Positions 8,292 through 50,951 of a DNA stretch of 64,000 nucleotides are shown piece after piece. A model generated the notes under the pieces. The model saw nothing but the letters and a program-made list of their open reading frames with translations. It was not told the origin of the DNA and made no database searches. Numbering within the stretch: position 1 is the first letter of the stretch; every line of letters begins with the position of its first letter. Source of the stretch: Yuukianura sp. NJ FZ-2021 (lineage: Eukaryota); NCBI GenBank assembly GCA_046563655.1, contig CM102286.1, positions 11,284,001 to 11,348,000 of the forward strand, given 5' to 3'. Made by a program: the position numbers and the translations under genes.

Positions 8292-9668
8292 TTAGCGCCG
8301 AAAAGTTAGTAGGAGGTCGGTGAGTCTGAGGAAAATAAAATGCAAAAGTGATGAGAAAGTTCCGTTTGAGATGTACTGCGTCACTATGGAAACTGCAAGG
8401 GGGCAGAAAGTCCTTGAGATCTTGCGGTAGTACGCAGCTTTAAATGCATGTCGGATGTTGTTCCGGTTGAATTGAACTGCATAATCTAATGACATCGTAC
8501 GAAGTTGTGCTGGGAAAGCACATATTTTTTGTAATGTGATCAAGAACATGGCGATTACTGTAATTCCACACATTGCCAACGGCAATCCGCAGATATCGAA
8601 GCAGTAGAAGAGGCAGAACGTCAGAATGGGGATGGACGTGGTCAATTCATACATCAACGCGGCCGACCAGTTCTGAAGGTCTAGCGAAATGCGATTGTGT
8701 ACAACCTGCATAGTGCGGTAGAGTAAGGCCTTCCTTCCAGGCTGATTCCAGAAGTCGTAAACTCCAGAGTATGTTCTGTAAAGTCAAAAGATATTCATAT
8801 ACGGATAACAATTGAAATTGGACCCGGCGGTTGGAAACGCCATATTTATGTCAGCAACTGGTAACCAAGTTCTTACCTCCCTCGATCCAGAATGTTGCAG
8901 CACCACTTGGGTATTGCTATGAGATAGAGGAGGTGTGCAAAGCACCATACGTCAAGAATAACTACGACACAAAACAATGGCGCGACAAGGCAAAGGGCCG
9001 TCAAAAAATGTTGCCCAAAAATGATAACAAATATTTGTTTCACCGTCATAAAAGAAGGGATTTCGCTTTCCAGCGTTGAAGCAACCAAGGCCATTGGTGA
9101 TGCTACTACTCCAAATGCCGTAAAGCAAAGCGATCGCGTCAACCACGCTTCTAGACCATCATGTCCATAAAATGTCCATCCGTACACATTTTCTAAAAAC
9201 AGATTTTTTTCATCACAATTAGAAATTAAAATTTCCGTTTTGAACTTTACCTAATGAGGACATTAATTTGGAAGTGTTTTGGAGTAAATAGTAAATGGAC
9301 TTCCGTTTTTTCAAAACAAACATTTGAATTGTAATGATGATAGTGAAGACTGATACTGCAGCAAAAGCCAATGCTCTGTTTTGTGTAGGTGAGCTAGAAG
9401 TGACCTCTCCAAAGGTCACGAAAAACGCAATAATTCCGCCGTGAACGGCAGTTAGGCCGACTATTCCTAACACCGACAGCATTTGACGGACCTCTCCTCC
9501 ACTGACAACTTGGATGGCACAAGTTGTGTTACCTTTGACATTGTTCTTGTGTTTTGTTTTTCTATCTGAGCAAGGGTAAGGTACGAGCAAAATCTTGTCA
9601 GATGAAATGCCAAGGTAGTAGCCACTATTAAGAATATGTTGGACTACGGTTAAAGTAAAAGTAGACAT
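8292..9668 (-). CDS. Gustatory/chemoreceptor-like multi-pass membrane protein, 3 exons, 405 aa
   Basis: Exons 9668-9251, 9192-8877, 8775-8292 join in frame through GT-AG introns (1218 nt). Multiple hydrophobic helices, ~400 aa, C-terminus RTFCPLAVSI...LTDLLLTFRR similar in layout to the two receptor-like genes at 52-56 kb. Family assignment is inference. Confidence 0.7.
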
Positions 9669-10218
9669 AGTAAAACGAAGATTAGTAACTTCAATTCCTT
9701 TTAAACCTTTTTTAAATTAAATTCAAATACATAACCTATCCGTTTTCGAAAGTATTCCAACGCTTCAAGTAAACTGAGAATGTGAATTACGACAACTCTT
9801 ATTGCTATATATTCTGCTATTATTAGCGGCCAGGAGAAGTCCTGTGTTGGAAAATACTTTATATTTTAAAAAATCAACGACTTAATTTTATAACATTTTG
9901 AGTGCTTTGGCAAAACTTTGAAAAATATAATGGATTCGAAATATTTATCAAACCACAGATCGCTTCTAAATGGACACCCGATGCTTTTAAAAACAATCAA
10001 TTATTCAAATTTAAAATATTTTTAGGATATTTTAAAATGCCGTCGCGGTTTAATTCACAATGCCTCAGACGGGTTCATAAACATGTTTCAATAGGTTCAT
10101 AAATATTAGATTCTTTGAGAGGTTGCTCTTAATAAGCAGTAAAAGATTCTGAGTAGATAAGATTGGTGAATCAGTACACGTCAAGTCAACCATGACAAAA
10201 CCCAATATGTAAATAGTT

Positions 10219-10565
10219 TGTAGCGGCCTTGTCCCTTTCCCCCAGTTTTCCCCCCATTTCGTCATTGGTTAGTTAGTTAGTAGGAGGAGGAGTTTAGCTT
10301 TTCGTTTTGCCTGCTACACGGACTGCGATCCGTGTGAGCAGTTCAGTTTCAGTTAGTTTAGTTAGTCTTCGTTTTGCTTTCTGCGAGTTAGCATTGTTGG
10401 CCAAGAGCCAGGTTGTTTTGTGGAGCAATAAACTCCACAACCATCACTACGTTCGTTTGTTGTTTCGTTTATTGTCTTTTCGTTTCCTGGAGCTCGGGCC
10501 TTCAGCCCCGGAGAGTTGTCTGGTTTTTGGAGCGTTCTCTGGTGTTTGGTAGCCGTAGTGCTACA
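10219..10565 (+). repeat. 5' LTR of the gag-only element (347 bp)
   Basis: Direct repeat of 13186-13531, TG...CA ends, internal AATAAA near 10427. Confidence 0.95.
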
Positions 10566-10569
10566 AAAG

Positions 10570-10580
10570 TGGCGACCGTG
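10570..10580 (+). promoter_or_regulatory. Primer-binding site, probably tRNA-Arg
   Basis: TGGCGACCGTG 4 nt after the 5' LTR, complementary to the ...CACGGTCGCCA 3' end of insect tRNA-Arg(TCG) as I recall it. Confidence 0.7.
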
Positions 10581-10721
10581 CAGTGACTCCATTCGGAAAC
10601 GGAAGGTCAAAGTTAGGTCAAAGTTATTGGCCTAACATTCCAAACTTGCGAGTTTGGGTTTTGGATTTGAACGGGAAGTCGCGGGAGTACGGCTTCCTGG
10701 CTATAGTGTATAGCCCACCGA

Positions 10722-12146
10722 ATGAACAAAAAGCAGAGACGAGAGTTGCAGAGACTTTCAATTCCAGAAAGTTCCTTTTTTCACAGTACACAGGAAAGTC
10801 GTAGTGACGGCTCTTCCTGCCACTACCTCAGAAGTCAAACGAATAGCAAAATACCCGTGTCCGGGTCATCTCCAAGATCGATTCAGTCTCCGTTGCCATT
10901 GGTGGTGATGGCAACATACACAAAAGCCGAAGTAGATGCCATGGTGGCTGCTGCGGTGGCACAGGCGATGGCTACGGTGGATCGGAGGATAGCACAGGCA
11001 GTCGCAGCGGCGGCTCCTGCCCCACCAATGCCACAGGCACAACCGAATGACCCTACTCAAGCATTGGTTGAAGCATTAAGAACAGTAAAATTGACAACGG
11101 TCACATCCACTATAAAAGTGCCGACATTTGACCCAAAAACGATGTCGGCAGTCGGCTTCTTGCGGGAAGTCGAAAGATACTTTACTATGCAAGGTCACGA
11201 GGTCAACCAATATCTTTACCTAATAAAATCTATTTTACCGTCAGAGTCACAGTCGTGGCTTGACTATGTCCTGACAACGGTCGATGACTGGGACGAGTTC
11301 AAGGACGAATTTGAAAAAAGATATGATTCATGGATAGATGCAAATGAGCGGATGCGTCTACTCCATAATCGCGAACAAAAGTTGAATGAACCCGTGGAGA
11401 GTTTCATTTATGACATGATCAGGAATTCAAGATTAGTTTTTCCTGACGAAACTCTCGCACAAGCGACGCGGAGGGCAAAGCTCGCCCTTTACCCAAGGTT
11501 ACGGACGGCCTTAGGTACATTGGAGTACGTGACTCCAGAAGCGTTGTTCGAGGCAGCAAGAGTAGCTCATGTAAATCTCACTGAAGAGAACGAGCTTAAC
11601 AAAGAAAAAATTCAATTACCTCCATTGGTAAAAACGGAGACACAAGAGACAGAGACAGACAAGAAGGAAGATAAGCCATCAGAGAAGGAGACAGAAGTTA
11701 CAGAGCAAGATAAGGAAGCAGAAGTCATTGAGAATGGCTTCAGAAAAAATGATTGGCGTGGAGAACGACAGCTTTTCATACAGACTCAAGCGGACGCAGA
11801 AACACATACGCCGTCATCAACTCAAGGTCAAGCTCAAGGTCAATCCCAAGAGCACGTTCCAGACCAAAGTCACAGTTCCACAGGAATCAACCCTAATTTG
11901 CCTATTCGCGGGACGACAGGCCAAGGTAATGGACAAGGTGGAGTTCAAGGTCGGGGTCAACCAACTACAAGACCACCAGATCTTAGCAACGTGAGTTGCT
12001 ATCGTTGTACGGGTGTTGGACACCGTCAATTTGAATGTCCATCAGCAGTGGGAGCAGCGATGGCAGCATTTGGAATTGAAGTCGAAGTTCCGGCTTCATA
12101 TTCCACTCAAGGTCAAGGATCAAGTCAACCTCAGTACGAATTCTAA
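10722..12146 (+). CDS. gag: Retrotransposon Gag (capsid plus CCHC nucleocapsid), 474 aa; the true start may be MATYTKAEV at 10908
   Basis: Ty3/Gypsy capsid-like segment KVPTFDP...FLREVERYF...WLD...WDEFKDEFEKRY...REQKLNEPVESFI and zinc knuckle CYRCTGVGHRQFEC (CX2CX4HX4C). Lies between the LTRs. Confidence 0.9.
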   Translation: MNKKQRRELQRLSIPESSFFHSTQESRSDGSSCHYLRSQTNSKIPVSGSSPRSIQSPLPLVVMATYTKAEVDAMVAAAVAQAMATVDRRIAQAVAAAAPAPPMPQAQPNDPTQALVEALRTVKLTTVTSTIKVPTFDPKTMSAVGFLREVERYFTMQGHEVNQYLYLIKSILPSESQSWLDYVLTTVDDWDEFKDEFEKRYDSWIDANERMRLLHNREQKLNEPVESFIYDMIRNSRLVFPDETLAQATRRAKLALYPRLRTALGTLEYVTPEALFEAARVAHVNLTEENELNKEKIQLPPLVKTETQETETDKKEDKPSEKETEVTEQDKEAEVIENGFRKNDWRGERQLFIQTQADAETHTPSSTQGQAQGQSQEHVPDQSHSSTGINPNLPIRGTTGQGNGQGGVQGRGQPTTRPPDLSNVSCYRCTGVGHRQFECPSAVGAAMAAFGIEVEVPASYSTQGQGSSQPQYEF

Positions 12147-12588
12147 AAAAGGAGAATGAACTTCAGTCCATCATTTCCCATTTTTCAATTGACAGTGGAC
12201 GTGTCATTTGTATATAATTTTTTTTTTTGAGTCAAAGTCATTGGCTCTAAACTGTGGAAGATCACAGTTGAAAATGTAAATTAAAAATTAACTTCTTTTG
12301 GTTAGCAGAAGAAGTCATAGTTATTAAAAAAGTGAAGTCGATGTTGTTCGGCTTCACCTCAAGGTCAGTGTCGGTGACCTAAGGAAGGAAGGAAGCTTCA
12401 TTACGGAAGGGGATTTCAAGGATTTTTGTTTTCATCAATGGCCATGGTGCTACAATTATCAGATGTCCATAGTTCCGGTAGTGAAGAACGAAGCAGCAGA
12501 AAGGTACACTGCGGTGACCTAGTAGTCGAGGGCGTGGCCTTGATACGTCACTGAGTCACGTCTCTCAGGCTCCCGTGCGCGAGCTTTC

Positions 12589-12905
12589 ATGTTACCAGTT
12601 CTGAGGAATTCGGCTCAACATAATCTACAGCTGCATCGTCGGAGGAACATGTTACCAGTTTTCACGAACGCGGTTCAACAGTTACTCAATTTCATCAAAA
12701 GTCGCAGTGGCGGCTTCCTTCAAAAATTCTACGTACAACGGAGGAAATGTTACCAGTTTTCACGAACGCGGTTCAACACTACTCAAGAAATTCATAAAAA
12801 GTCGCAGTGGCGGCTTCCTTCAAGATTTCAGTCATTTTGGGAATGAGAGGTCATATGAGAACATGTTACCAGTTTGCCAGAACGCGGTTCAACAGTTACT
12901 CACAA
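12589..12905 (+). repeat. Four-copy repeat array inside the gag-only element
   Basis: ATGTTACCAGTT..(N)..CGG(T/C)TCAACA units start at 12589, 12649, 12747 and 12863. Copies 2 and 3 also share AAAAGTCGCAGTGGCGGCTTCCTTCAA. Confidence 0.85.
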
Positions 12906-13185
12906 ATTCAAGCATTATCAAAAAAGCCAAAGTTTTGGCTAAAATTCAAAATTAATAAGTTCAAGTCAGAACTTATCATCAAAAACCACTTTCGGATCGA
13001 GAGGACATTCCGATGAAGATTGGACTTTGCTGTGGTGACATTGGGATTCGGATGGAGCAATTCAGAGGACATCTACTGGTGGGAGAAGAAGAGGACCGCC
13101 AATTCCAAGTCCGCTTTCCAGAGGTCAAGGTCATGGAGAAGTTCGCCGAGGATAGCCCCGCCAAACTTCTCTTCAGGCAGGAAGA

Positions 13186-13531
13186 TGTAGCGGCCTTGTC
13201 CCTTTCCCCCAGTTTCCCCCCATTTCGTCATTGGTTAGTTAGTTAGTAGGAGGAGGAGTTTAGCTTTTCGTTTTGCCTGCTACACGGACTGCGATCCGTG
13301 TGAGCAGTTCAGTTTCAGTTAGTTTAGTTAGTCTTCGTTTTGCTTTCTGCGAGTTAGCATTGTTGGCCAAGAGCCAGGTTGTTTTGTGGAGCAATAAACT
13401 CCACAACCATCACTACGTTCGTTTGTTGTTTCGTTTATTGTCTTTTCGTTTCCTGGAGCTCGGGCCTTCAGCCCCGGAGAGTTGTCTGGTTTTTGGAGCG
13501 TTCTCTGGTGTTTGGTAGCCGTAGTGCTACA
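13186..13531 (+). repeat. 3' LTR of the gag-only element (346 bp)
   Basis: Direct repeat of 10219-10565, followed by TSD AGTT. Confidence 0.95.
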
Positions 13532-16500
13532 AGTTTCCGAACGTATCTACGATTATTTGGTTAGCGGTTATGAGACATAGAATGTCAATGTCAATATCCG
13601 GTAGTACCACAGCCGTTGCGATTGGTGCTGCTATGGAAAGCGAAAGTTTCAATTCTAATTCCGAACAATATATATTGTTCAACCATTCCATCCTTAGATA
13701 CTCGTTTTCATAAACAAATACATAAAATCTTAAGGATTATGCCTGTGCTGGAATCCTGGGGTCAAAATGACGCTTGTTTTACTTCTTAATTCTTTTACTT
13801 ACGAATTACATAAAAAAATTAAATATCAAAAATTGTTACGTTTATTTCTGAAATTTTGAATGTGGATTCATGTTTTAAATATTCTAGCTGTAAAAGCACA
13901 ATTAAATTGTGTAAGTGGCATTGCCATTTATAAAGTCTTACATAAAAACATAAACCAGTCAATTCATTTAATCCTGTTCATTGGGTCACTGTAACAAAAG
14001 TAAAATTTTAAAAATGCATTGCAAGTTTACTAGTTAGCGTCGGTTTTCAAAATCTATACCCGAATTCGACCATTCCCCGTAGGTTGTGGGTTTCGGCAGG
14101 AAATGTTGTAGAGGGAACCTTTAAATGGTTTCCAACGTTTCTGAAGTTGACGGTAGCTGGAAGGAAAAGAAGAAGAAAGTAAAAAGAGGGAAAGTTTCGT
14201 ACTTAAAATTATGACTCCCGAGAGTCCCATTAGAAGAATAACGGAAACGAGAGAAAAAGGAAAGCACTACACAAAACAACTACATGTCAATTATAAACTT
14301 AAGTCCCCATTTTCCACTGCTTTCCAGAAAAAAAAATCCTCATTGAAGCTTTTTTTCTTTGAAATTTAACATTTTGCAGATGCCCTGAAGCTGCTCCTTT
14401 TTTTAAACGTCAAAACCTTTTTCCTCTATGAAAAATTATTTGTTCGTCGAATGAAAAAGTTCGAAATTTTCAATGGAAGGGCGCATTTAGTTCAACATTG
14501 AATTGGTTCAAGGGCTTAAATAGTTCAAACGCAATAGATTCAATGTGTATTTAAGTTTTTGAACTGATTTTTTGAAACATGGTTTCAAACCAATTTAGTT
14601 GAAGCAATTATACGGAACCGCGCAAAAAGGGTTTTCACTTAAAGTTGTTAAAATTATGAACTTAAATTAAAAAAAAAACGAAGTTAAACGTGAGTTTTGA
14701 AAAGAGAAAGTTGCGTTTTAATTCCAAACTGATGAAAATGGAAGGAGTGAAAGTCGGATAATTTCTTCGAAGTGTTTGGGTGCGGATAATAGCGGAAGTC
14801 CTTCTCTCCTAATGGTTACGTTTCTTGTTTTAGGTTTAACGTTAAGTTCGAAGAGAAAGGAGACAAATTACTGTGGACAATAAAACAAGAATAATGAGGG
14901 CAAAGGAAGCTCTATTCAGCCAAGCAAAACTGTTTGGAGGAGCTGGGGAAAGCTGACTTTTTCCTTCAAACCGAGAGAAAGCAAAAACAGAAAAAAAGCG
15001 CGGAAAAGGAGTCACATAGAATTTGAGTTTCCATTGAGGAGTCTGCTGCTGTGTTCCCCATGGGACAGTGCCAAAAATTGTGGCCTTTTGCCAAGCGTTG
15101 ATGCTAGAGAAAGGCCTGCTTTCTCTGCAATTACAGTCACACTCCCGTCTAATCGCCTTCCCATAGGCTACTGGGCTATATAGAAAAACATACAGGTCAA
15201 ATTGAACATTTTCTGTTTTTCTGTTTTAAAATCCATTTCCAGTTTTTCTCCAAAAACTTTCTCCTGAGTGAGTCTAAAAATGTGGAATTTTGAACTTTGA
15301 ATTTTCCCTCGCTCGCTCCATTTCCACTTTTCAGTTCAAGTCTCTTTGATGACTAATATCAAATTATGCTCCTTCCAGTAGGGAGACTTTGTTAAGTCAC
15401 TCTTACGTTTTTTCCTTTCATTTTCTATGTAGCAAAAGTTAAAAAAAAAAGATGGTTTCACTTCCATTCTCAAAAAAAAAATCTTTTCTTTTTAACTTTT
15501 CTCAATTTTGAAATTTCAAAAAGTGAATTATTTCCACTTTCTCGTTTCGTGTTCTAAATGAATGTGATTATAATCCCTGTGTCGAAAAGAGTCAAAAAGT
15601 GAAGAGACGCTGGTAATGGAAGCGGAGTTTTTGATTTAATCATAATTCACTTTTTATGTTGAAGAATTGAAGTGGGCGGAAGGATGAAGTTGGTTACTTC
15701 CGGAGAAAGTTGGAAAGGCGGAACTGGGGCGGGGAAAGGGATACTCTGCCTAAGTTTGAATATTTTAAGTTCCCGGGCCCTTAGAAAGAAAAATTTTGAA
15801 AAAATTCGAATTTCGAGAGTTGTGCTTTTTCCACTTTCTCCAAAGTTTTGTTGATAGTAAATTAAACCCAGGGATGGGTTTGGGCGGGGAAACTTAATGC
15901 GCTCAACTTATCTTTTTCCTTCTTTCCTTTCCTTAACTTCAATCCTTTTTCTTCTCTTCGTTTCGACAAACGAAAAGAGAAAAATGCGAAGAAGAAGAAT
16001 TCACCAAAAGCCGTTGTTGGTGGTTGAACTTTTACTCCCATTTTCTTCAGTACTTTTTAAAATACAAAAAATTTTGCCAAATACTTTTTGACTCACTTTG
16101 TTGTGACGCTTGAGCAAGAATTTAGCCAGTGTTTCTGAGGTAGAAAAAATTGTGCTCAAAAATAAAGCTCGGTAGGTATTCCGCTATCTATTTTGAATTC
16201 AAAAAAAGTAAGAAAAATGTTCAGGCAAGCGTACAGCCGTGCTAGAACTTTTATTTCTAGTTGTATTTAGTTATAGGAAGCCAAAATTTGGCCGAAATAA
16301 GTCATTCTTTAAATATTAAAATTTCGGTGAAATCTAACTATTCGGTGTGTACAATCTTTTTTTGTCGTATTTTATTAGCCATAATAGGAAAACAATGTTG
16401 GCTGAAAGTGACAGAAATGGAGAAACCCGGGTCGGCGGCAGTCAGTGTGGCTTAAAACTGGTTATAATTCCGCCGTACTAAAAAAAAAGAAGCGCAAAAA

Positions 16501-23400: not shown

Positions 23401-26400
23401 AAAAAAAATAACGCCCCACCCTCTTGTCGTTAGGCGTCACACTGCCCCCTACCACATTGCAACTTCATTTCTTCCCAACTTTTCGAAAACTTCCCAGAAA
23501 CATTGCAAATTTTGTTGAAAATTTGAAATTTTATTTTCTTTGAAAACTTCACAAAAGGCTGCACTTTTAATGAATTTTTAATTTCTATTCATGTACTGTT
23601 CGATTGGGATGAAATGACTGTTTCGTAAATTTAAATTTGGTGGATTTTTTTTTTGTTTTTTTTACTATATTGTAAAATATGAAATTAATAATTTAGTTCT
23701 TCAGTGCATAACCCACACCCACTTGTGTTTCCAATTTATGAACTCCTACGCTTTATACTTCCAGCGTACATGAAACTAGACGACCATTAGCAGAAAAGTG
23801 ATGCAGTGGATCTCTCAGTTCGTTGCTCCTTTTTAGCATATTCTTATTAACTTTCCGTTTCAAATTTGCGCTCTCGTTGCTTTGCCGCTCTCTCTCAGCG
23901 CGTTCCCTTTTCTTGGAAGCCGAGTGAGCATTAATCAGTGTTGCTTTGAATCAATGAATCCCCGTCACCCGCCCGCATGATTTACTACTTGGATGGGAAA
24001 TTACCGAAACTAAGCACAAGGCACATCCAAAACGGTCGAAACACGAAATTTCAACAACACTTTGAGAGGCGCCGCTAAAATCTATAGTGGCTGCAGCAGC
24101 GCATCTTCTGGTTCTTCATAATGGGATTCTTGTGGTTTTATTTTCCAAGTTCAATTAGGTAAATAGATTTTGAATGCAAATGATTTAGAGCGTGTTAGTC
24201 GTAAGCTATAAGTTAGCGTTACGGCGTCTAAAACTCCAGTGCTGGCTCGTCAAATTTTTCTAAATAGCGTCTTATACTATACACGACTCATTCCAGAAAA
24301 GACTCCCTTGACTCGACCATCAAAATCATCATCCGAAACCTAAAATCCTAAAACCTAAAGCTGGTGCGGAACCTAATTCCCTGGCAGCTCATCAGAGAGA
24401 AAGCAAACTTTCTGGGTTCGACTCTAATGACCTTCCTTGCGCCCCACCAACTTAATAGGAAAAGTTGTCATCATTTACTTTAGTACAGAGTCCATTGACT
24501 CCTAATTGAATTTTTAAAAGGGACTGGGACTAGTTTTGGCAGAGAACCCATTTGCCCCACGAAATGGTGGGGCTAATCTTAGTGGCTGTGGGACTAATAA
24601 TGTCCCACCGCTACGGACGGTTGGTGAAGCGTTGAAGAGGGAGGAAGAAAGTGGAAAAGTATGGAGCAAGGTAACATTAAATTAAATTATCTTTTTATCT
24701 TCCGGACCCACGTGACTTATTCTTCTCAAAATCCGCACTTATAACTTTCTCCATTTTTTTCTCCGGGGAAAAGCAATCCTTGAGTTGGCGGGAAAGTGAA
24801 AGCGGGGGAAAAGGATTCATTGCCTGAGTGTTGACTTTAAGTGGGAAGATGTAAAGTAGTGCGGAATTTTGGACGGTGAAAAAAAAGATATTGGAAAAAT
24901 GCAAAGATGCATGTAGAGTTAACCCGCGATATCAAAAACATCGACATACAAAACCTCTAAAAATTTCGATATTAAAGAAGTTAAAAAAATAAGTTAATTT
25001 AACAAGCGCCTTTTTTGAATATTCCACTTTAACACCAATACCGTTGTTGACTTTTTAAAACGCCACGATCTTTTCCGTTCAGAGCATCGCAAAACGCACT
25101 AACAATGTTGGCAGAATGTAATTTCGATAGCTCCTGAATTTTTTGAGCACAATATAGAACAAGTCTGAGTAACTGAACTGCCGGAAACAACTCAACCGAA
25201 ACTGTTAGCATGAGGAGGACTGTGGTATAGATGTATCTGTCGGTGTGTAAGGCCGGCCAAATACTACCACGAACGGTATCCCAATGGCTATATGAAGGAT
25301 GGGTTCACACTATAACCGTTGTCGATTTCCCAACGTCTAATGTGACTGTCGAAAGTCGAAAGTCTAATGCCGAATGTCTAATGCCGAATGTCTAGTGCCG
25401 AATGTCTAATGCCGAATGTCTAATGCCGAATGTCTTGTGCCGAATGTCTAATGCCGAATGTCTTGTGCCGAGTGTCTTGAGTCGAACGTCTAGTGCCGGG
25501 TGTCTAGAGCCGAGAGTCTAGTGCCGAGTGTCTAGAGTCGAACGTCTAGTGCCGAGTGTCTAGAGCCGAGAGTCTAGTGCCGAGTGTCTAGAGTCGAGCG
25601 TCTAGTGCCGAGTGTCGACTGCCGAGTGTCTGATGCCGAGTGTCGACTGCCGAGTGTCTGATGCCGAGTGTCGACTGCCGAGTGTCTGATGCCGAGTGTC
25701 GACTGCCGAGTGTCTGATGCCGAGTGTCGACTGCCGAGTGTCGAGTGTCGACTGCCGAAAGTCTAATGCCGAGTGTCTAATTCGACTGTCGAATGAATGA
25801 AACTGAGAACAAGAGAACTTCCGACCAAGAGAGTGTATTCTGAACTGACTGATTACTGATTTCTTACTGACTGTCGAACTGAAATACACAGGTATTTATA
25901 GAAAAAGGGGGGAGGAGTCAGAAGAAGCAAGATCTTACCACCCAAACGTGATGTCTGGGGGTAACATCTTACTCCTTCCTATCCCTTAACTGCTGAAAGA
26001 AAAGACTTATCCTACTGAATGAATAACCTAGGGGGAGGGCTGACAAAGGGGAAAAACCATATCTGAGCTTAAACTAAAGGGAGCAGGGGTTAACAGGGGG
26101 AATTCCAACTTAACCTAAAAAACTGTTAACCTATACTGCCTATATCTAGAAGACCTATAACTAGATGAATGCCTAAACTAGAAGAACGCCTAACTACGGG
26201 CACGTCCATAAGGGGGGGGGCAGACGATCACTGAATTAAAATTTAATTACCAGAAAAAATAAAAAAAAGGACATCGTCGCTACATTCCCCCCCGTATGAA
26301 CGTGCACGTTCATACTAAAAATAAGCGATGTCTACTACTGATTAACTTTAAGGACGCATAACTTGGTGGCGGGTCTCTTGTAATGTCCTGCTGCTGTCCT

Positions 26401-29400
26401 GATGTTGGCCCAACGTGTCTGTCCGTCCTTGGTTTCTGGGACCTCCTCGACGATGCCTTTCAGCCAGCAGTTCCGGGGAAGGGAATCGTCCACGATCAAG
26501 ACAACGTCTCCGACCTGGATGGGGGTAGCCTTCTCGATCCACTTCTGGCGGTTGGTCAGGGTTGGCAGGAACTCACGAATCCAGCGTCCCCAGAAGTGAT
26601 CGGCCAGTCGCATCGCAAGTCTCCACTGCTTCCCAGGAATGAGGTCTCCATCGTCAAAGGCTCCAGGTGGTTGGTACCCGTTGGGTGTTCCGATGAGAAA
26701 GTGGTTGGGAGTGAGAACTTCTTCTGATTCCACGTCTGAGTCAACATATGTAAGCGGGTGGCCATTGACGGTATTCTCGGCTTCTGTGAGGAAGGTAAGT
26801 AGAGTCTCTTCTCGAGGTGTTCTTTCCTTCAGTACTGCATGGAGAGCTCTCTTTACGGCCTGAACCATCCTCTCCCAACTTCCTCCCATGTGTGGTGCAT
26901 ACGGCGGATTGAAATGCCATTCAATGGTTCTGATGGTCATCTCAGCACGAATCTTCTCTTGATCTAGTTCTTTGATGGCCTTCTGCAGTTCGTTGTTTGC
27001 GCCCACGAAGTTGGTGCCGTTGTCTGAGTAAATATGGGCTGGGTTGCCCCTGCGGGAGATGAAGCGACGAAGAGCCATGATGAAGCTGTCGGTTGAGAGG
27101 GATCCGGCTAATTCCAGGTGAACTGCACGGGTTACCAAGCAAGTAAACAGGGCACCATACCGCTTCTCATGTCTTCTTCCAATAGTCACTTCCATAGGTC
27201 CAAAGTAGTCAACGCCTGTCCTAGTGAAGGGTCTCTGGTAACTGTCGAGTCGTGCCAAGGGCAATGGAGCCATCTCTGGAGGTACTGGGCGAGCACGATC
27301 ATTTTTGCAACGTTGACAGTTGAACCAGGCCTTCTTGACTGCTTCTCTGAGACTTGTGATGCAGAACCGCTGCTTGAGATCATTGACAACTTGGTCCTTG
27401 TTTTGGTGTCCTGCCTTCTCGTGGTAGTGTCTGATCAGTAAGATTGTGTATGGATGTTTCGGATGAAGGATTACTGGATTCCGTTCCAGGTTTCCGATCT
27501 CAACATCAGCCTGCACACGTCCCTTGAGGCGAAGAACTCCCGTATCATCCATGTAGATTGACAAGCCTCGCAGTGGTGTGTGTAGCTGGTGTTTGGCTGC
27601 TCTGGGGTAATCTTTCATACGGAAGGCAAGGACAACGGCTGGATAAGATTCCTGTTGAGCCCATCTCCACCAAAAGGTCTCCGACTCGAAAAGCTCGGAA
27701 ATGGCGAAAGGTGGATAGGGGTGACTGCCTCCACGAAATCCGAATCTGACTGCGCGAAGAAGGTACCCGGTTGCTCTGATGAGTCGGGTCCATGAGGAGA
27801 ATCGTGAGATGTCGAAAGGACACTCACCTGCAGTCTTTTTCAAGTTTTCCACATGTCCACAAAACTCCTTCTTGATTTCTAATATCTCCGGATCTTCGTT
27901 CAGTTCTGATGGTTGTCCGATGGGCCACTGGTTTGGGGGAAGCTTCAGGAAACTTGGTCCATTCAGCCATCTGCTGTCTGGTGAGAAATCGCATGGATCT
28001 CTATCTCTGGTGGCTTCATCGGCAACATTCTGATGGGTGGAAATCCAGTTCCAATCTGTCTTATCTGTCAAATCCAGGATCTCACCTACTCTGTTTGATA
28101 CGAACTGCTTTAGACGACATGAGTCCATGGACAGCCAGCACATGACGGTGCGACTGTCGGTCCAGAAGAAACACTTCGTAGGCTGGATGCTATGCCACTC
28201 CTTGATGGATTGGGAGAGTCTGGCTCCCATGACTGCGGCCTGAAGTTCATACCTCGGAATGGTCATAGCTTTGAGAGGAGTAACTCGCGTCTTGGCTGCT
28301 ACGAAGGAAGTTTCTCCGGAGTCCAATCTGAAGTAGGCTACGGCGGAGTAGGCTAACTCACTGGCGTCGCAGAAGACATGAAGTTCAATTGAGTCAGCAG
28401 TGGAGAAGTGGTGGGAGTAACATCTCGGAATCTTGAAGGAAGAGATCGTTCTGAGGTCTTCAATCCATTCCTTCCACTTGATCCACAGTGATTCTGGTAG
28501 AATATCGTCCCATCCAATTCCGGCGCGCCAAGCAAGTTGCAACAGGATCTTTGCCTTGACTGTGAGGACTGCTGCAAAACCCAGGGGATCGAAAACTGAC
28601 ATTACCACAGACAAGGCTTCTCTCTTCGTAGGCGACTCCTGTCCGTCGAGGATCTCCTTCCTGACTTTAAAGAAACTGGTTGAAAATGTGAAGAAGTCCT
28701 CTCCGGGGTTCCACTCAAGACCAAGGATCCGCTCACTGGCAATGGTGTCTTTATTTCCGAAAGACTTCTGAGATTTGGAGCGGAGATCTTCTGGAATGTT
28801 CTGGATGAATGTGGGATCGTTGGATGCCCAGTTGCAGAGATGGAAGCCTCCATGTTTTTGAATCTTGAAAACTTCCTGGAAGTGAATCAAGGCCTTGGCT
28901 GAGGTGTCGCATGAATCCAACAAATCGTCCACGTAGTGACGAGCGACAATAGCATCCACTGCTCTGGGAAATCTGTCAGCAAACTGCATGGCGTTTTCTC
29001 TCTTGACAAGTTGAGCACAGTATGGCGAACAGGTTGCTCCAAAGGTCATGACTGCCATCTTGTACTGGTTTGGAGGGTTGACTCGATCCATTCCTCTCCA
29101 AAGGATTCTCTGACTGAGTTGATCTTCCTCACGCATCTTGACTTGGTGAAACATCTCTTTGATGTCGGCTGTGATGGCAATTTTTCTCTCTCTGAATTTG
29201 CAAAGAACTGATGGTAGGGGTCTGAGGATGTCTGGTCCACTGAAGAGTACGGAATTGAGGCTGACTCCGTGACTGGTGGCTGCTGCGTCAAAGACTAACC
29301 TGAGTTTTTCTGGCTTACTAACCTTGCTAACTCCAAAGTGAGGAAGGAACCAAGTCCGCGGAGATACTGTGTCCGCTTCTTCCTTCGACATCTTCTGGAG

Positions 29401-32400
29401 GTAGCCTGAATCGATGTAGTGTTGGACATTCTCGCAGTACTTCTTAGCGTAGACAGGGTCCTTGTCTAGTTTCCGTTCGATGGAAGAGAGTCGCTGGAGT
29501 GCCATCGTCTTGCTCTCAGGCAGCGTCACTGTCTCGTCCTTCCAAAGAAGTCCAACCTCGTATCTGTCTCCGACTCTGCGAAGCGTCCTCATTGCAATTT
29601 CTTCAGCCTTCTGCTCGTCCTTGGTGTAGGGAGAAGAGATAGTGGGTCTGACGCCGAACTCTTCTGTGCTGAAGTACTGCTTCACTAATTGATGCAAGGG
29701 ATCTGATTCTGTAATGCTGTAGACTCCATTCACAAGGTTCACTGTCTTGCATTCTGCTGGTAGGGCCATCTTCCCGTAGACCATCCACCCGAGTGGCGTC
29801 TTTCCCGCTGCTGGGCTGTTCTGACGACCTTTCCGGACCTCTGTGGGTGTAATCAGCTCATGGTGCGGAAGGCCAATCAGGATCTTCGGCCGGACATCTG
29901 AATACAATGGAAGAGGCAATCCATCGAAATGCTTCCATTCTGAGAGTTGTGACGGAGTCACGGTGCCGGCGCGAAGAGTCAGTGACGGGAAAGTACGTAC
30001 GTCGGTGATTTTGAATGATTCTCCGGTAGTGGGATTGACAATACTTAGTGATACTGAACGTGATGGGATTTCTGATCCCTGACTGTGACTGATTGTGGAG
30101 AAACCAAGTGGTTGTCTCTTACCTCGGAGTTGAAGTTGGTCCGCAAGTTCTTCGTCTAGTAGAGTATAGCCAGATCCCGGATCCAGCAGAGCATAAGTGG
30201 AGACTTCTCCCTTCGGACCTCTAAGTGTGACGGGAAGAACTTGGTAGGTAACTTGACTGGAAACGTGTAGCTGAAGTGGCTCGACGTGATTGGTGGCAGG
30301 AGTCGCGGTCCGGTGCAGAAGCTGATGGTGGAAGTAACTGCAGTCTCCAACTGTGCATTTCTTCTTGGAACGGCAATCTTTGGTTCCGTGGCCGAAGTTG
30401 AGACATCCATAGCAAAGCTTCCGGTCCTTGACTGTCTTGAGGCGAGCTTCCAAAGTGGCTTTCTTGAACTGGTCGCATCCTTGGATGCGATGTCCATCTG
30501 TCTGACAATGTTGACATCGGGTGACTTTCGGTGTAGACTGCTGCTGCTGAGACTGAGGCGATGAATCTTGAGATTTCTGCTGAGAAGTCTGTTGTTGAAG
30601 TGATGTTTGAGACGTCGACGGAGTTGACTGGGTAGTACTTCCTTTTTCTGTTGTCAGTACTGATCTACTGGTTTGTCTGTCACTCCTGGACTTCTCCTCT
30701 TTGAACTTCGGTGTAGAGATTCTGCAAGCTGTCCTCACCTTCTTCATGATCCAGGCTTCAAACTTTTCCAGTGACGGATCCATTTCATCCTCGGAGTCTT
30801 CTCCCCACTGTAGTCGAAGGCTCGTTGGTAGTTTTTTAACTAGGTCCTCAAGCATTTGGAAGTTATGGAGACAAGACTTTGACTGAAATCCTCGGAGTGT
30901 CTCCATAAGATTACTCACGTGTCTTCCAAACGCGATGAGGGATTCCAAATCGTTCTCTTTGAGTACTGGGATCGTCTGCAGCTTGGACAAGAAGTGTGAC
31001 AAGATGTGGTGTCTCTGACCGTAGCGAAGTTCCAATCTTTCCATAATCTTCGGCACGTTCTCTGGGTTCTGTAGCAGGCATTCGACCTCTTTGTAGGCTT
31101 CTCCCTTCAAGCATCGACGAAGACGGTGAAGATTCTCGTAGTTTGAGAACTCGCATTTCTCTGTTGACTGGGTGTATGCTGTGTGGAAAATCAGCCACTC
31201 TTCTGGACGACCATTGAATTGAGGAAGATCACTGCCGTAAGCTTTTCTGGCCAGCACCTTTTCGGAGGTGGAGGAAGTAGTTACCGGTTTCAACTGTTCC
31301 AATGCCTTACCGAGGGCCGCGGCAATTACCTCTCCGACCTGGACAATTTCAGATTTGGCTTCTGACTGGTGAATTGATGCTGGTGGATGCTCTTCCTTGA
31401 TTGAGTGGTTTGACGGTGGTTTTGAAGGAACTGGAGATGGTGGACCGGACGGAACGTTGTTGACCCAATCCTGAGTACTTCTATGTTGAATCTCTGGACG
31501 GTTGGCCACCGGTTTAGGCCATTCAACGAGTCCCATTTCTTCCAAAATGTCCTGCTCTTCGTCTGCGAGGTTCTCCAGTTCCATCTTCAGCTTCATCTCG
31601 GCGATCTCCTTGTCCTGGCTAGCTGTCAGCTCGGCGAGCTTCCGGTCCGCTTCCATTGACTTGAGTCGTGCTGCTAGCTCCAGTTCTCGCTGCTTCTTAC
31701 GAATGGTTGACCTGACTGAGGCGTGACTGACATGTGATACGACACTTCTGGTGTCGTCTTCTGGTTGGATGACAATTCCCTGTGGACTTGCCCTGACTGA
31801 TATGACGGTTTCGGCCTCAGTGTCTGCCAATTCTTCGCTGGGTGGATTTCGAGATGAATGCGGAAGGTCTGCCATAGCTGAAAACGGGGACTGAGATTAG
31901 ATTGGTAATGTAATGATACGTTTGGGACGATATCACCTGATGTAGAGCCCTGTAGGTTTTTTGGAGCTGGCTCGGTGCTCACATAGACCTTATAAAAAGG
32001 TGATGACTGATGTCCAAGTGGGATGTCTTCCTCTGGTTTACTGCTCGTCAGATGGCTGGGTCGATCCGGTTCGAAGGACCATGTAATTTCGATAGCTCCT
32101 GAATTTTTTGAGCACAATATAGAACAAGTCTGAGTAACTGAACTGCCGGAAACAACTCAACCGAAACTGTTAGCATGAGGAGGACTGTGGTATAGATGTA
32201 TCTGTCGGTGTGTAAGGCCGGCCAAATACTACCACGAACGGTATCCCAATGGCTATATGAAGGATGGGTTCACACTATAACCGTTGTCGATTTCCCAACG
32301 TCTAATGTGACTGTCGAAAGTCGAAAGTCTAATGCCGAATGTCTAATGCCGAATGTCTAGTGCCGAATGTCTAATGCCGAATGTCTAATGCCGAATGTCT

Positions 32401-35400
32401 TGTGCCGAATGTCTAATGCCGAATGTCTTGTGCCGAGTGTCTTGAGTCGAACGTCTAGTGCCGGGTGTCTAGAGCCGAGAGTCTAGTGCCGAGTGTCTAG
32501 AGTCGAACGTCTAGTGCCGAGTGTCTAGAGCCGAGAGTCTAGTGCCGAGTGTCTAGAGTCGAGCGTCTAGTGCCGAGTGTCGACTGCCGAGTGTCTGATG
32601 CCGAGTGTCGACTGCCGAGTGTCTGATGCCGAGTGTCGACTGCCGAGTGTCTGATGCCGAGTGTCGACTGCCGAGTGTCTGATGCCGAGTGTCGACTGCC
32701 GAGTGTCGAGTGTCGACTGCCGAAAGTCTAATGCCGAGTGTCTAATTCGACTGTCGAATGAATGAAACTGAGAACAAGAGAACTTCCGACCAAGAGAGTG
32801 TATTCTGAACTGACTGATTACTGATTTCTTACTGACTGTCGAACTGAAATACACAGGTATTTATAGAGGAAAAAGGGGGAGGAGTCAGAAGAAGCAAGAT
32901 CTTACCACCCAAACGTGATGTCCGGGGGTAACATCTTACTCCTTCCTATCCCTTAGCTGCTGAAAGAAAAGACTTATCCTACTGAATGAATAACCTAGGG
33001 GGAGGGCTGACAAAGGGGAAAAACCATATCTGAGCTTAAACTAAAGGGAGCAGGGGTTAACAGGGGGAATTCCAACTTAACCTAAAAAACTGTTAACCTA
33101 TACTGCCTATATCTAGAAGACCTATAACTAGATGAATGCCTAAACTAGAAGAACGCCTAACTACGGGCACGTCCATAAGGGGAGGGCAGACGATCACTGA
33201 ATTAAAATTTAATTACCAGAAAAAATAAAAAAAAGGACATCGTCGCTACACAGAAAACGTGTTGATCTAATAGCAGTTGAGTTAACTAAAAATAATATTA
33301 ACATATGACAAGCTACATGAAAGCAGCTGCAATCAGATTGCTGTACAAGCATGAGAAATTAATTTTGATCAAACGTTGTTTACTGTTTTACTTTGTAAAA
33401 ATATTCAATAAAGTTGCGATTAGTGATTTGAATTGCTTTACAGTACTTTGGTACTTGCAGGTATGTTGTTGGTAAAAATTTAGTGTTGCACAAGTTGTGT
33501 TGATGAAATTGCAAGGAATGGCCTGATTGTACCTGAAGAGGAGAGCAGGGATTGTGAATTGAGGAGATCAAGAGAGCGAGGGAAGAAGAGTCTCGTTTAA
33601 TTGATCAATAAATCTTTATCAGACGTCTTTCATTTCCTCTTTTCTCTCATTCCTTTCCCTTGCTTTCTCTCTGCTCAACTTCAAAATTCCGCGCTTCCTC
33701 AGCCACTACCTTCAAGCACTTTCTTACGCTCCCAAGCACCAATATTATTATTATCTTCATGCAGTACTCATCCAGCAACAGAAAGCAATCTGAAGGACGC
33801 ACAGAAAGCACAAAAAGTTCAAAGCCTTTCTTTTTCTCGTTTTCAAAATGCAGTTTTTTATGTCTCACAAACTTCCGTTTCAATTCGGATTCACATTAGT
33901 TTTCAAAGTTTCTTTTCTGTCAAGGTAAACTTCAATGTTTTTCATCAAATTCTTTCCTTTCGCTTCATGAACTTTGTTTTTACTTTCATAGTCAGTTCAC
34001 AAAATCATCACAGTGAGGCTTCCATTGGACATGACAGTTTGAGTTTTGGCCAGTTTCACGGTTTGAATTTACAAATGTAATTCTTTTTTTTGTTGAAAAA
34101 GTTAGATTTTGAAAATATACTAGAATGACTTTCAGAAACCGACAGATTCGATTTGCTCTTTTATAAAAATCGTGTTTCAGCGACTTGACTAAATGTTGGC
34201 TGAGTTCAATGATTTGACTTTAACGGATTTATTGTTGTTTAGTTTTAGTTGTGGGCGGTTCTGTTGAAACGGAACAATGCTGCGGAGTGACATTGACACA
34301 CAACAATGATTCCTAATTCAGAAAGTCTTTTGCAAAGGGAGGGCCCTTCAAAGGGCCTAATAAATCTAGGAAATCCTTCACCATGGTCCAATCCCACATC
34401 ACATCAGCTTTATTCCTTCTTCTCAATTTGTCTTCCTCTTCTAATCAATTTATTTCATTTCATTTCCTCCCCACTTTCTCCCAAGAGCACCCCACACAAC
34501 CAACCATTACTTCATCATTTGAGGCCATCCACCACTCGTTTGTCTTTCCAATAATCCAACAACTCAGTAGACCCAGCCTAACCAAAGACCTAACTCTTAG
34601 GTTAACCTAACATAAGTTTTTGAGTTAACCTAACGTCTTGAGTTGGTGGGGGAAGGTCATGGGTAGGAGAAAGGGAGCTTTAGATTTAATAGTTTTTGGT
34701 TAACTTAGACTGAAATGATGACTATTTGGTCATGACTTTGGAAATTTATGTTAAAAAGTAATAGAAGAGGTCATAGGCAGGCTGTGTTGGAAAGTGAGCT
34801 CGATGATAATTCGATTACAATCTACCCGATTTTCCACGTTTTGCTTTCACTTTTCCAGTTTCCACCCCTCCCCCTCTTTTGGCTTGCTGGCTGAGAGCAA
34901 GGGGGGTAAAGGGGGCGGGGTAAATGGGGGCGGAGAAAATAACATGAGTCAAAATAAATGGAACAGATGCTGATTCTCTGGTTGCAATTTATGAGATGGC
35001 TTTACAGTCCTGGTACAGGCACTGGCGCTACTTTCAAAATGTGCAAATGTACAAGTAAAAGTGGAGAAAGCAGATCCATACACACATAGGACACACCGCA
35101 GTACAGATAAAAATCTAAAAAAAAAATTCAGGTTTTTGGCAACCAAGCCATAAAACGACGTTCGCAAAATGGTGAATTCAGTTTTCCTTTTCTTCAGTAT
35201 CTTATTTACTCAAAAACAAATTTAAATAATTTCACACTTCCAAAACAACACTGACTTAAAGTTGACATTTTGTTTTAAACTTTCGTTTTTGAAAATACTC
35301 ATTCTTGCTCTAAAAACATATTTTCAAATCCATTGAACGCTTTGTCAAGTATTCTTCGTAAGCGTGAGTGGAGAGTAAAAGCAGAAGTTATTAATTTAAA

Positions 35401-42502: not shown

Positions 42503-43099
42503 AAAGGATAAGGGCCAAAACCCATTGAAAAGTTGCCTTGGTGCGATTCGAATGAAATTTTTACCAGTGGTTAAGGTCAACGTTGGGATCATTTTTGCAA
42601 ATTTTCAGCCCCCTAGAAACGATAGGTCACGGATGGCATGGGGTCAAAGGTCACCCCATCAATCCATGACGACCCCATGCAAGTAGCATATCGTTGCAAA
42701 GCGCTTGACCTCCTGATTCGAAAAATGTATATGTGTCAATATTTATGACGTATGACAAAGAAGTTATGGCGCCGAAACCCGAAATAGGTGAGATTCTGAA
42801 ACGGGTCGGACTTGCGATTTTTACGTTTAGCGCCATAACTTCGTTGTCATACGTCATAAATATTGACATATGTACATTTTTCGAATCAGGAAATCAAGCG
42901 CTTTGCAACGATATGCTACTTGCATGGGGTCGTCATGGCTTGGTGGGGTGACCTTTGACCCCATACCATCCGTGACCTATCGTTTCTAGGGGGCTGAAAA
43001 TTTCCAAAAATCATCCCAACATTGACCTTGACAACTGGTAGAAATTTCATCCAAATCGCACCAAGGCAACTCTTCAATGGGCTTTGGCCCTTATCCTTT
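42503..43099. mobile_element. Foldback/palindromic element (~270-bp inverted arms, ~57-bp spacer)
   Basis: Arms 42503-42772 and 42830-43099 are reverse complements with about 18 substitutions by hand count and no indels. Ends AAAGGATAAGGGCCAAA...TTTGGCCCTTATCCTTT. Confidence 0.85.
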
Positions 43100-43651: not shown

Positions 43652-43861
43652 TTATAGTTGGGGCAACCAAAATAGACCCAAGTTTTTCTAGAGGATACTC
43701 GCACTCACGCCCTTCTCCAACTGGCACCCGCTTCTCCACTCAACTCCAAAATGAACCTCCCATCTAAGAAGAGACTGCCACAGTGCCACAAGCTTTACAG
43801 AGGTGTGAGTGCGAGTATCCTCTACAAAAACTTGGGTCTATTTTGGTTGCCCCAACTATAA
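43652..43861. repeat. 57-bp inverted repeat with a 96-bp spacer (MITE or hairpin)
   Basis: 43652-43708 versus 43805-43861, reverse complementary with one mismatch. Confidence 0.85.
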
Positions 43862-48500: not shown

Positions 48501-50587
48501 GGAAGTTAAGAGTAACTAACAATAGAGGGAAGATACAGCAGTTAATTATTGAACAAATAGATAGTAGCTTATGGCTGCGCTAGATAAATAAGTTATAGGT
48601 ACAAGTGTAAGAACTCACGAGTATTCTGTCAAACGCGGATGGACTACCGCCTCGTTGCACATGTCCGAGTACTGTGACGCGCGTATCCTGATTCAATTTA
48701 TCGACGATAACTTGACGCACTTGCTCTGCAGTAATGGGATCCCCATTTCGATCGATTGCACCTTCAGATACGATTATAATATTCAAACGCTGTCCGGTTT
48801 CCCGCTCCTGTTATTATTGACAAAAACAATAAATAAACCAGTGTTAATTACGAAATAATAAACTGAAACAAAACAAAACAAGCATAGGCAGTCTATCGCA
48901 TTGCAGGGTTTTATAAGTAGAGGCAGCGAGGCAGGAATCTTAAGAATAGGCCAAAGATCAAAGTGAGGTCATTGCCTGTGTAAGCTTTCGACAAAGCTTG
49001 TTTTGCCAGTCAGTCTCCGCTGGCCATTCTGGAATGAACACAAAATCTGCTTCTGCTGCCAGCGCTCCCACCAATGCTAAATATCTAATGTTTTATATAA
49101 TACTATATTAGGTATAATAACAAAGAAGTTTTCGAAGAAGAAGGTTAAAAAACACTGCATAGGTTTTAAGGCGACTATTAAATGGGGCAGCGCAAACTTA
49201 AAACCAAACCACCAATCACCAGGTTAACTCAAACCTAAATTGGCTTGCCTTAATTAGTTTTTGACAGAGTTTCTGTTCCCAATCAATTGGAGGAGGAGAT
49301 TCCGGTAAAAAAACATAATCGGCTTCTGTTGACAAAGCGCCAACGACGGCCAAATATCTTTACATAAACGACAAAGATGCTAATGAAAAGCTATATGAAG
49401 ATTGGACTTTATACTATTTTAGTGCCAGTGATGTGTAGCGCGTAGTCAAAGAGAAATTCGAAACGTAAAACAGCGACGTACCCGCAGTTTCTGCCCATGA
49501 CTTCTAAAATAAATGTCCGTTGGTGCGACATTGCTGTGGAAACAATTGCGTCGACTGCCTCAATGATCCTATGAAGAGCGGAATCCGTGCCTGCAATATA
49601 AAATATACTAATTAATAATAAATGATAGGGGTATAAATTAGTATATATCATGTATAGCAACACGTTTTGAAAAATAAAATTCGAAACGAGAATGTACTTT
49701 CTGAAGACTCATGCCGAAGTTAGCACAATGCAGTGTGTGTTGCATGAATCACCCAAATAAACGAACAACGTTTTTACCTATTGTCATATCGGTTCCGCAG
49801 AAGTCGTTGTCAATGGATCCAACCATTCCAACAATATTAAGAGTCCCGTACTTTGAACGTTGATCGTCTGTTATAGTTTTTGTCTGAAGTAATTCGTCCA
49901 ACAATGACGGCCATTCTTGACGAAAAATGTTTGCTCCCGTTAGAGAACCATCGCCACCGATTACAACCAAATTTGAAATCCCATTTTCAATCAAATTTTT
50001 AGCAGCCTTTAATCGCCCTGCTCTCTCTCGAAAATCTTTACACCGAGCCGACCCAATTATTGTTCCACCCTGCAAACGAAAAGAGGATCGAAAAGAGGTA
50101 GTAAGTAGTGCATTTCCATTTCCAATTCCAACATCCAGCCAAGGTTATCAAAAAAATAACGCTAGCTCCCTAACCACGAATTTCGATTTGTATTATAGTA
50201 TTGGCGTTGTCTCATGTCTCACGTACTTTATGAATAATAGCCGAAACTGATGGCCAGTGTGCTTCTTCGATGTAGTTTCCACCATCAACCATTCCCTGAT
50301 ACCCTTCTTTGATGAAAAATACTTTACACCCAAAGTAAAGTCCGACTCTTACAACAGCTCTTGTAGCAGCATTCATTCCTAGTGAAAGTAAAGCAACATT
50401 GCCAGAGTATCATCATAATCTGAACCTAATTAATAGAATTAGAATTTTAGTTTGAATTACCCTGAGAATCGCCTCCTGATGTTAGAACAGCCATTCCCTT
50501 TCCAGCATGAGCACCAGGCATCGTGTTGAAGTGACTCTTCTTTTGTCCCTTTCGTGTCGCTGAAGAGCTGGGTGATACCGACGACAT
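45505..50587 (-). CDS. Pfk: ATP-dependent 6-phosphofructokinase (eukaryotic two-half PFK1), ~794 aa plus optional microexons
   Basis: Exons 50587-50461, 50378-50227, 50069-49778, 49590-49482, [49357-49249 or 49084-48976], 48807-48619, 48492-48302, 48172-48091, (47444-47421), (47256-47233), 46814-46418, 46329-46035, 45946-45505. Motifs [69 protein letters not shown]. Confidence 0.97.
47509..48001. mobile_element. piggyBac-type non-autonomous element (493 bp) in a Pfk intron
   Basis: TTAA TSD (47505-47508, 48002-48005) and 12-bp TIR CCCGTTAATTTC / GAAATTAACGGG. No ORF. Confidence 0.85.
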
Positions 50588-50951
50588 TGCTAGGCAACAG
50601 CTGAAATGGCTGAATAGGTAACGATAATTTAAATACACTACTTTCCTTTTAGTGAAGTTGAGGAGACTGACCAAGACCATGGAAGTTACTACCTACCTAC
50701 TAAACCATTCCCAGCGCTCGGTCAGACCATTACCAAGTAGGTCCAGAGTTCCTCCACTAAAATTAAAGGGAAGGAAGGACGAAGGAGTTTCTCATTTCCT
50801 GATACAGCAGATTCCGCATCTTTTCATTGCAATTTGCAATAGTCAAAATTACAGGAACTCGAAGAGATTGACGTAAGCCTGAATGAGCGCTTTTGTACCC
50901 ACGCTGTAAAATGAGAATGATTTGTTAACCACACTGCACTGCTTTGCTCAT

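Follow-up and report, generated by a model that had tools for sequence, protein, structure and literature searches.

Introduction

Retrotransposons that keep gag while lacking pol are already known, namely the TR-GAG elements of plants (PMC4350172) and BHIKHARI Bik-1/Bik-2 of zebrafish (PMC12067270). As described in the former paper, TR-GAG elements are shorter than 4 kb, carry long terminal repeats (LTRs), a primer-binding site (PBS), a polypurine tract (PPT) and a single gag open reading frame (ORF) with no protease (PR), reverse transcriptase (RT), RNase H (RH) or integrase (IN), and occur in at least two copies with no closely matching autonomous partner. Bik-1 and Bik-2 are likewise non-autonomous, with gag and neither pol nor env, few intact copies, and polymorphic insertions with target-site duplications (TSDs). 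In the mouse, IAP 1-delta-1 needs gag and pol in trans, and a Gag-derived product of its own reportedly acts in cis (PMC6466679). Here, we analyzed a stretch of 64,000 nucleotides (the window) from Yuukianura sp. NJ FZ-2021 (assembly GCA_046563655.1, contig CM102286.1, positions 11,284,001 to 11,348,000 of the forward strand), which contains a 3,313-bp Ty3/gypsy element at 10219-13531, designated as family Q. The explanation that we favor, and consider probable, is that Q is a helper-dependent non-autonomous family that lost pol long ago and is still transposing, with its Gag acting in cis.

Q is built like TR-GAG: at 3.3 kb it stays within the limit of 4 kb, possesses LTRs, PBS, PPT and gag, lacks PR, IN, RT and RH, and is present in at least two copies, again with no closely matching autonomous partner found. 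TR-GAG, however, has a 5-bp TSD and a plant host, whereas Q has a 4-bp TSD and resides in an animal genome, and for these two reasons we do not class Q as a TR-GAG family of plants. Moreover, gag selection was measured and candidate helpers were identified for Q, whereas the main text of PMC4350172 nowhere uses the word “selection”. Different from Q, Bik-1 and Bik-2 are related to lokiretroviruses and have a demonstrated developmental role (PMC12067270); Q belongs to Ty3/gypsy and has no known host role. IAP 1-delta-1 is the closest mechanistic model for Q, but it forms a Gag-Pol fusion through an in-frame deletion (PMC6466679), whereas Q holds a whole gag that ends at its own stop, with no pol frame after it and no frameshift-like site. 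In the part of the literature that was covered, no report was found of an arthropod gag-only gypsy family with measured selection, nor of linker acidification after pol loss; PMC10089650 deals with non-autonomous ERVs that are non-coding and has no bearing on this point.

Results

The earlier note on this DNA, made from the sequence alone, had described near-identical LTRs, an exact TSD, a PBS, a PPT and an uninterrupted Gag with capsid (CA) and CCHC knuckle, and all of these were recovered, with the ends of the element exactly where they had been placed. The two LTRs differ by a single 1-bp indel and no substitution, AGTT stands on both sides, and 10 of the 11 PPT positions are purines. The PBS starts four bases past the 5' LTR and its 11 nt pair with the 3' end of tRNA-Arg(TCG) including CCA; in a genome pattern search one tRNA gene matched this site, and ARAGORN called it tRNA-Arg(TCG). 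The sole long ORF of Q, 10707-12146, is uninterrupted, and both profile and fold identify a capsid within it; the upstream ATG at 10722 is not kept in the second Q copy, nor in most of the contig depth of runs X1 and X2. The LTR ends, TSD, tRNA primer site, PPT, capsid and CCHC knuckle place Q in the Ty3/gypsy (Metaviridae) lineage, and the PR-RT-RH-IN order of pol is found in its nearest gag relatives (families A, B and C), Q itself being pol-less.

Pol is essentially gone from Q, as the earlier note had stated, but it is not “riddled with stops”: there is no recognizable pol to carry them, only a vestige of about 55 nt. Hidden Markov models (HMMs) of pol and of ORF3, each based on 8 related proteins, were applied to the region after gag in both full copies (1,039 nt in the window element), and no pol or ORF3 domain exceeded 3 bits. 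With the same pol HMM, remnants scoring 11-16 bits were found in 4/4 pol-less sister elements, while 300 shuffles reached -0.3 at best. Pfam searches of five short post-gag frames, tblastn with 12 related proteins and nhmmer gave no significant pol remnant in Q either. By eye, the first ~55 nt past the gag stop look like the pol start of relatives, and the last ~40 nt of the 3' region are similar to the end of the family A ORF3. A heptamer that precedes the gag stop in relatives, which we read as slippery-site-like and thus frameshift-like, is missing from both full Q copies. That the pol region is erased past profile detection and the heptamer is gone in both copies implies a long pol-less history for Q; with no PR, RT, RH or IN of its own, it is not autonomous. 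Within the 3' region, 3-4 imperfect repeats of 33-54 nt (12588-12910) are retained in the Q copies on C1 and C10, and are possibly a packaging or export signal.

A search of the genome with the Q LTR returned 14 candidates and 14 matches, every one of which was examined, and no pol was found beside any of them. A second full copy (G000:C1:6468145-6471456) has LTRs identical at 348/348 positions, the TSD GTGG and a colinear pol-less body of 3.3 kb. Thus Q is not a one-off deletion derivative, and the pol-less structure that the earlier note wanted to see shared among copies collected by LTR is indeed common to the two full ones. The remaining matches comprise a copy on C10 that is truncated at its 5' end, two partial relics, and three solo LTRs of full length, each flanked by a 4-bp TSD of its own. 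A search with leader-plus-capsid DNA gave 2/2 matching candidates, both pol-less. The empty site (10214 joined to 13532 with one TSD copy) is present in contigs from 3/4 public DNA runs, which represent at most 2 samples and 2 studies, so the window insertion is young and polymorphic; together with the LTR identity, this bears out the proposal of a recently mobile non-autonomous element.

Some further observations were made on these copies. The 5'-truncated copy (L005/L086, G000:C10:858156-859710) starts at the last gag codons, has an internal duplication of ~160-190 bp and is followed by extra LTR-like repeats belonging to another element, and one solo LTR (L007, G000:C3:6548055-6549811) is split by a ~1.4 kb element with terminal inverted repeats. 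Contigs of run X4 over 11514-13215 have a depth of ~535-590 against ~5 in the flanks and begin within gag with 30 foreign letters, possibly an amplified variant without the 5' portion of gag, or else an artefact of the library. The window insertion lies ~500 bp upstream of, and antisense to, an exon that by eye looks like that of a membrane protein.

Selection on gag was measured between the two full Q copies as the ratio of nonsynonymous to synonymous divergence (dN/dS). The ratio was 0.32 for the whole gag (synonymous differences over sites, Sd, 38.8/290.7; nonsynonymous, Nd, 43.2/945.3; Fisher p 1.1e-6), 0.22 for the capsid (Sd 21/137, Nd 16/445; p 6.8e-6) and 0.67 for the linker between capsid and knuckle (p 0.55). 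The 37 capsid substitutions cause 13 amino-acid changes against ~26 expected, and 13 or fewer were obtained in 0/5,000 random placements at either of two transition rates. Comparison of the copies shows no net frameshift in gag, whereas the 3' region has 12 internal indels, 10 of them of non-triplet length. The capsid sequence is therefore under purifying selection, and the linker ratio does not differ from 1. Because the pol-less 3' region is common to both copies, the gag divergence postdates the loss of pol, barring an import of gag from a parent that was not seen. Selection on Gag, as claimed in the earlier note, is thereby confirmed by measurement, though not by its own argument from a stop-riddled pol, and neither of the two outcomes which that note had set against its proposal, a single copy made by one post-insertion deletion or a gag dN/dS of about 1, was what we found.

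From the capsid dN/dS we infer that the protein of Q itself may be needed in cis for transposition that is complemented in trans. It might instead be the translation of an open frame that matters, through RNA stability or a coupling to packaging, and not the capsid protein. The fusion product of IAP 1-delta-1 acts in cis (PMC6466679), and sister pol-less elements hold long second frames with little conserved content, which would suit such an effect. But in the capsid (w, that is dN/dS, 0.22), unlike in the linker (w 0.67), amino-acid changes are depleted and not just stops, and this capsid-specific ratio already largely refutes the idea, which we regard as very unlikely.

Against Pfam, the Q gag ORF gave weak matches to zf-CCHC, Retrotrans_gag and Arc_capsid, each under the curated cut-off. 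A profile built from 32 related capsid regions of the same genome, pol-bearing relatives included, matches Arc at E 2e-17 and dArc1 at E 8e-7. In public sequences, the single-sequence search gave 2 matches among 8,000 scored candidates and the profile search 3,828. The AlphaFold model of the Q capsid (pLDDT 84.6) predicts the two-lobe helical fold of the Arc, dArc and Ty3 capsids, and also resembles those of PEG10 and Copia. Compared with solved structures (Arc, dArc and Ty3 references: PDB 7r1z, 6gse, 6tap, 6taq, 6r24), the N-lobe of the model reached Z 9.1 (rmsd 2.0 over 70 residues), and the model reached Z 7.9 against the dArc1 capsid (rmsd 5.0 over 152 residues) and Z 6.7 against that of Ty3 (rmsd 5.4 over 149 residues). 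The likeness to dArc and Ty3 CA that the earlier note had proposed to look for is thus present in the predicted model. Downstream, the knuckle region is 97% identical between the two full copies and its CCHC is intact.

Among solved structures, Arc and dArc are the most similar to the Q capsid, and young gag-only Bik-1/2 have developmental roles in zebrafish (PMC12067270), so one may ask whether the Q gag is in early domestication toward an Arc-like host RNA-packaging gene. We give this little credence. The Arc likeness is a trait of the whole lineage, and the profile that reveals it includes pol-bearing relatives. Furthermore, the locus is absent from other haplotypes, with the empty site in 3/4 runs, both LTRs are intact, and the copies sit at unrelated sites; the suggestion in the earlier note of an intermediate toward an RNA-packaging capsid gene is contradicted by these same facts. 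Unlike Arc and dArc, the Q gag is still within a mobile LTR element, not a fixed host locus.

A genome gag search, with 101/129 candidates scored, gave at least 90 matches, so that its counts are lower bounds, and 63 stretches around gag and LTR matches were compared. Nearest to Q among the pol-bearing families are A, B and C, which are ~8 kb long and encode gag, a pol in the -1 frame (PR-RT-RH-IN) and an ORF3, and each of which has copies with uninterrupted gag and pol frames. By identity, the best named pol match is to the springtail Orchesella dallaii (53%), in keeping with a springtail-like host. The ORF3 of pol-bearing relatives (L047, L048, L052-L054, L068, L072, L118) is nearest to Rrp6/EXOSC10 and DEDDy exonuclease-like; its catalytic motifs are in place, its tail is acidic, and an HRDC domain is usually included. 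The gag-pol-ORF3 layout also occurs in L118, a contig of an unrelated metagenome. Bdelloid Juno and Vesta are Ty3/gypsy elements with a DEDDy exonuclease ORF3 as well (PMC5408684); in the pol-bearing kin of Q, by contrast, the ORF3 is nearest to Rrp6/EXOSC10 with HRDC, a term that does not occur in the text of PMC5408684, and Q has no ORF3.

In a capsid tree of 33/40 rows, from which 7 near-identical, unclear or distant rows were excluded, Q is the sister of A+B+C together with a pol-less group N, and its capsid is 56-64% identical to those of A, B and C in the N-lobe and 54-66% in the C-lobe. The tRNA-Arg primer site and the 4-bp TSD are common to Q and A, B and C, and these nearest pol-bearing relatives are likely helpers of Q. 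Family A is the best candidate, not a proven one, because it is nearest in the U5 end (8 terminal bases identical), in the tail before the PPT (z 6.0 and 2.5 with two copies) and in the leader (z 4.5, the nearest among pol-bearing families). The autonomous partner that the earlier note had called for was accordingly found in part: primer site and U5 end fit, but the capsids are only 54-66% identical.

The window also holds an intact-looking element on the minus strand at 25117-33250, with one 1,853-aa ORF, a 5-bp TSD and LTRs of ~1,167 bp that contain a 14-bp tandem array and are identical at 1,162/1,170 aligned columns; from its domain layout we take it to be BEL/Pao-type. It was rejected as a helper of Q, being of another superfamily, with a 5-bp TSD, another primer site and no LTR similarity.

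Q is not the only element of this kind. Pol is also missing or gutted in further elements with paired LTRs that belong to separate clades, namely group N, L083, two copies derived from D and three related to E. Q and N stand apart in the capsid tree (95/92, 95/95), yet an approximately unbiased (AU) test of a single clade gave p 0.059, so one clade is not rejected. Pol was thus lost or gutted in this lineage at four or five origins, as Q and N may or may not share one. Within group N (L056-L061, L063, L089) the elements are pol-less, 3.3-3.8 kb long and retain the frameshift-like heptamer, and most copies have a long second frame with remnants of the pol start and the RNase H end. In L058 and L060/L063, the LTR ends and capsid parts resemble different pol-bearing families, which suggests helper switching by recombination.

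The net charge of the capsid-to-knuckle segment was surveyed in 40 intact gag frames. Among the rows from pol-bearing elements, 22 lie between +5 and +19 and two distant ones at +3; L118, which has pol, ORF3 and a linker of +12, agrees with this as a single case. The two Q copies have -9 and -7 (-6 and -4 with other boundaries) and six group N rows -18 to -29. The D-derived pol-less copies have +3 and -1 against +10 to +12 in their parents, three E-related pol-less rows +2 to +3, and pol-less L083 +8 against +15 in its parent. A partly deleted C copy retains the parental +6, and L099, whose structure is unclear, has +3. Among public homologs, 110/151 have both capsid and knuckle; their linker median is +8, with 4 at -5 or lower. 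Within pol-less groups dN/dS is 0.03-0.30 for the capsid and 0.25-0.93 for the linker; where neither member of a pair is pol-less, the linker value is 0.04-0.43. A random-substitution test covered the D-derived copies and L083, Q being too diverged from its relatives: the D-derived drop exceeds random substitution (p 0.001-0.035 in four pairings of one lineage) and that of L083 is borderline (p 0.05-0.08). Six control pairs shifted by 0, 0, 0, +7, +1 and 0, and hence a shift of 7 can arise between pol-bearing copies too. Linker acidification after pol loss may therefore be taken as a lead, not a result.

A conserved capsid joined to a linker without basic charge would also suit a protein capable of assembly but poor at chaperoning RNA, and trans-dominant Gag derivatives are known (PMC4599808). 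On this basis, the Q Gag could be an interfering capsid which, like Ty1 p22, spoils helper particles to the benefit of the host or to the detriment of competing elements, the Q RNA being a mere passenger. We think this unlikely, because the zinc knuckle is intact and nearly unchanged between copies, the insertion is polymorphic and young, so that selection seems to act via transposition, and poisoning its sole helper would be self-defeating.

The features of Q are listed in Table 1. Elsewhere in the window, the host ORFs at 8292-9716 and 45505-60858 resemble, by eye, exons of chemoreceptor-type membrane proteins, phosphofructokinase and cytochrome P450. Long inverted repeats at 42503-43099 and 43652-43861 (270 nt at 93% and 60 nt at 97%, respectively) are probably foldback or MITE-type elements.

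Table 1 Features of element Q in the window
Feature	Position	Strand	Remark
5' TSD	10215..10218	+	AGTT; empty-site joint agrees
5' LTR	10219..10565	+	347 bp, TG...CA; AATAAA at 10427
PBS	10570..10580	+	11 nt complementary to tRNA-Arg(TCG) plus CCA
gag ORF	10722..12146	+	474 aa (start at ATG 10722) or 412 aa (start at ATG 10908)
Two-lobe capsid domain	11100..11609	+	Predicted Arc/dArc/Ty3-type fold; purifying selection
Capsid-to-knuckle linker	11637..11990	+	Net charge -9, or -6 under different boundaries; three RG; dN/dS 0.67, compatible with 1
Single CCHC zinc knuckle	11994..12044	+	C-X2-C-X4-H-X4-C
Vestige of pol 5' end	12147..12201	+	By eye against families A/B/C/N; DNA-profile support marginal, E 0.046
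Non-coding 3' region	12202..13174	+	No pol/ORF3 domain detected; imperfect repeats 12588-12910
PPT	13175..13185	+	Purines 10/11
3' LTR	13186..13531	+	346 bp
3' TSD	13532..13535	+	AGTT

Discussion

The view of Q as a helper-dependent family has direct support in its cis signals, its recent insertions, its pol-less lineage, the purifying selection on its capsid and the existence of the pol-bearing kin A, B and C. Its cycle would run as follows. From an LTR-to-LTR RNA, Gag alone would be translated, there being no frameshift site and no pol; this Gag would bind its own RNA via the zinc knuckle and enter particles together with helper Gag and Gag-Pol, giving the Q RNA a packaging advantage in cis. 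The protease, RT and IN of the helper would then copy Q from the tRNA-Arg primer, followed by insertion with a 4-bp duplication. Basic regions of the Ty3 and Ty1 Gag are described as acting in RNA chaperoning, and an acidic spacer in Ty3 as regulating assembly (PMC4974528). By analogy, the function of the basic RG-rich linker may be supplied by the helper, the linker of Q having decayed or become acidic.

Several points weigh against this explanation. The building of a capsid by Q and its borrowing of RT and IN, as proposed in the earlier note, are read from sequence, and the dN/dS comes from a single pair, only two full copies being available. At ~6%, gag has diverged as much as the non-coding 3' region (5.8%), yet the LTRs differ by only 1.2%, so recombination between sublineages or non-coding constraint must be involved. 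The LTR bodies of Q and the helpers are weakly similar (z 1.7-4.6), with the highest value for family C and not A, and this, together with the capsid identity of 54-66% per lobe, makes helper compatibility uncertain. Finally, a closer autonomous parent could have been missed by the gag search, given the share of candidates scored, or be absent from this assembly.

The last point leads to an alternative in which Q RNA is carried in the particles of a close autonomous parent missing from this assembly or individual, and the selection seen on gag was imported from that parent by recombination. The same alternative has been raised for TR-GAG (PMC4350172). The uneven divergence (LTR 1.2%, 3' region 5.8%, synonymous gag sites 13%) reflects mosaicism or uneven constraint, and the search counts, as lower bounds, leave room for such a parent. 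Even so, we judge it rather improbable: both leader-plus-capsid matches are pol-less, none of the 14 LTR matches flanks a pol, and the long pol-less history drawn from the erased pol and the lost heptamer stands against it.

Beyond Q, we tentatively propose, and regard as possible but doubtful, that pol-less LTR elements which keep gag converge on a parasite Gag, with conserved capsid and knuckle and with a linker that turns neutral or acidic from an RG-rich, basic state. This Gag would co-assemble with the basic Gag of the helper and package its own RNA in cis, leaving chaperoning to the helper. If this is true, the genome would offer four or five independent replicates of a convergent parasite Gag, an analogue among LTR elements of a satellite virus remodelling a shared capsid.

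Why gag-only LTR elements keep gag is an open question, left to future work in PMC4350172, and Q gives a partial, measured answer to it: after pol loss, it is the capsid that selection maintains, not the basic linker. Several independent lineages of pol loss beside pol-bearing kin constitute a natural, replicated comparison of the Gag functions that a parasite must supply for itself, and Q shows the raw material of Arc-like domestication prior to any capture by the host.

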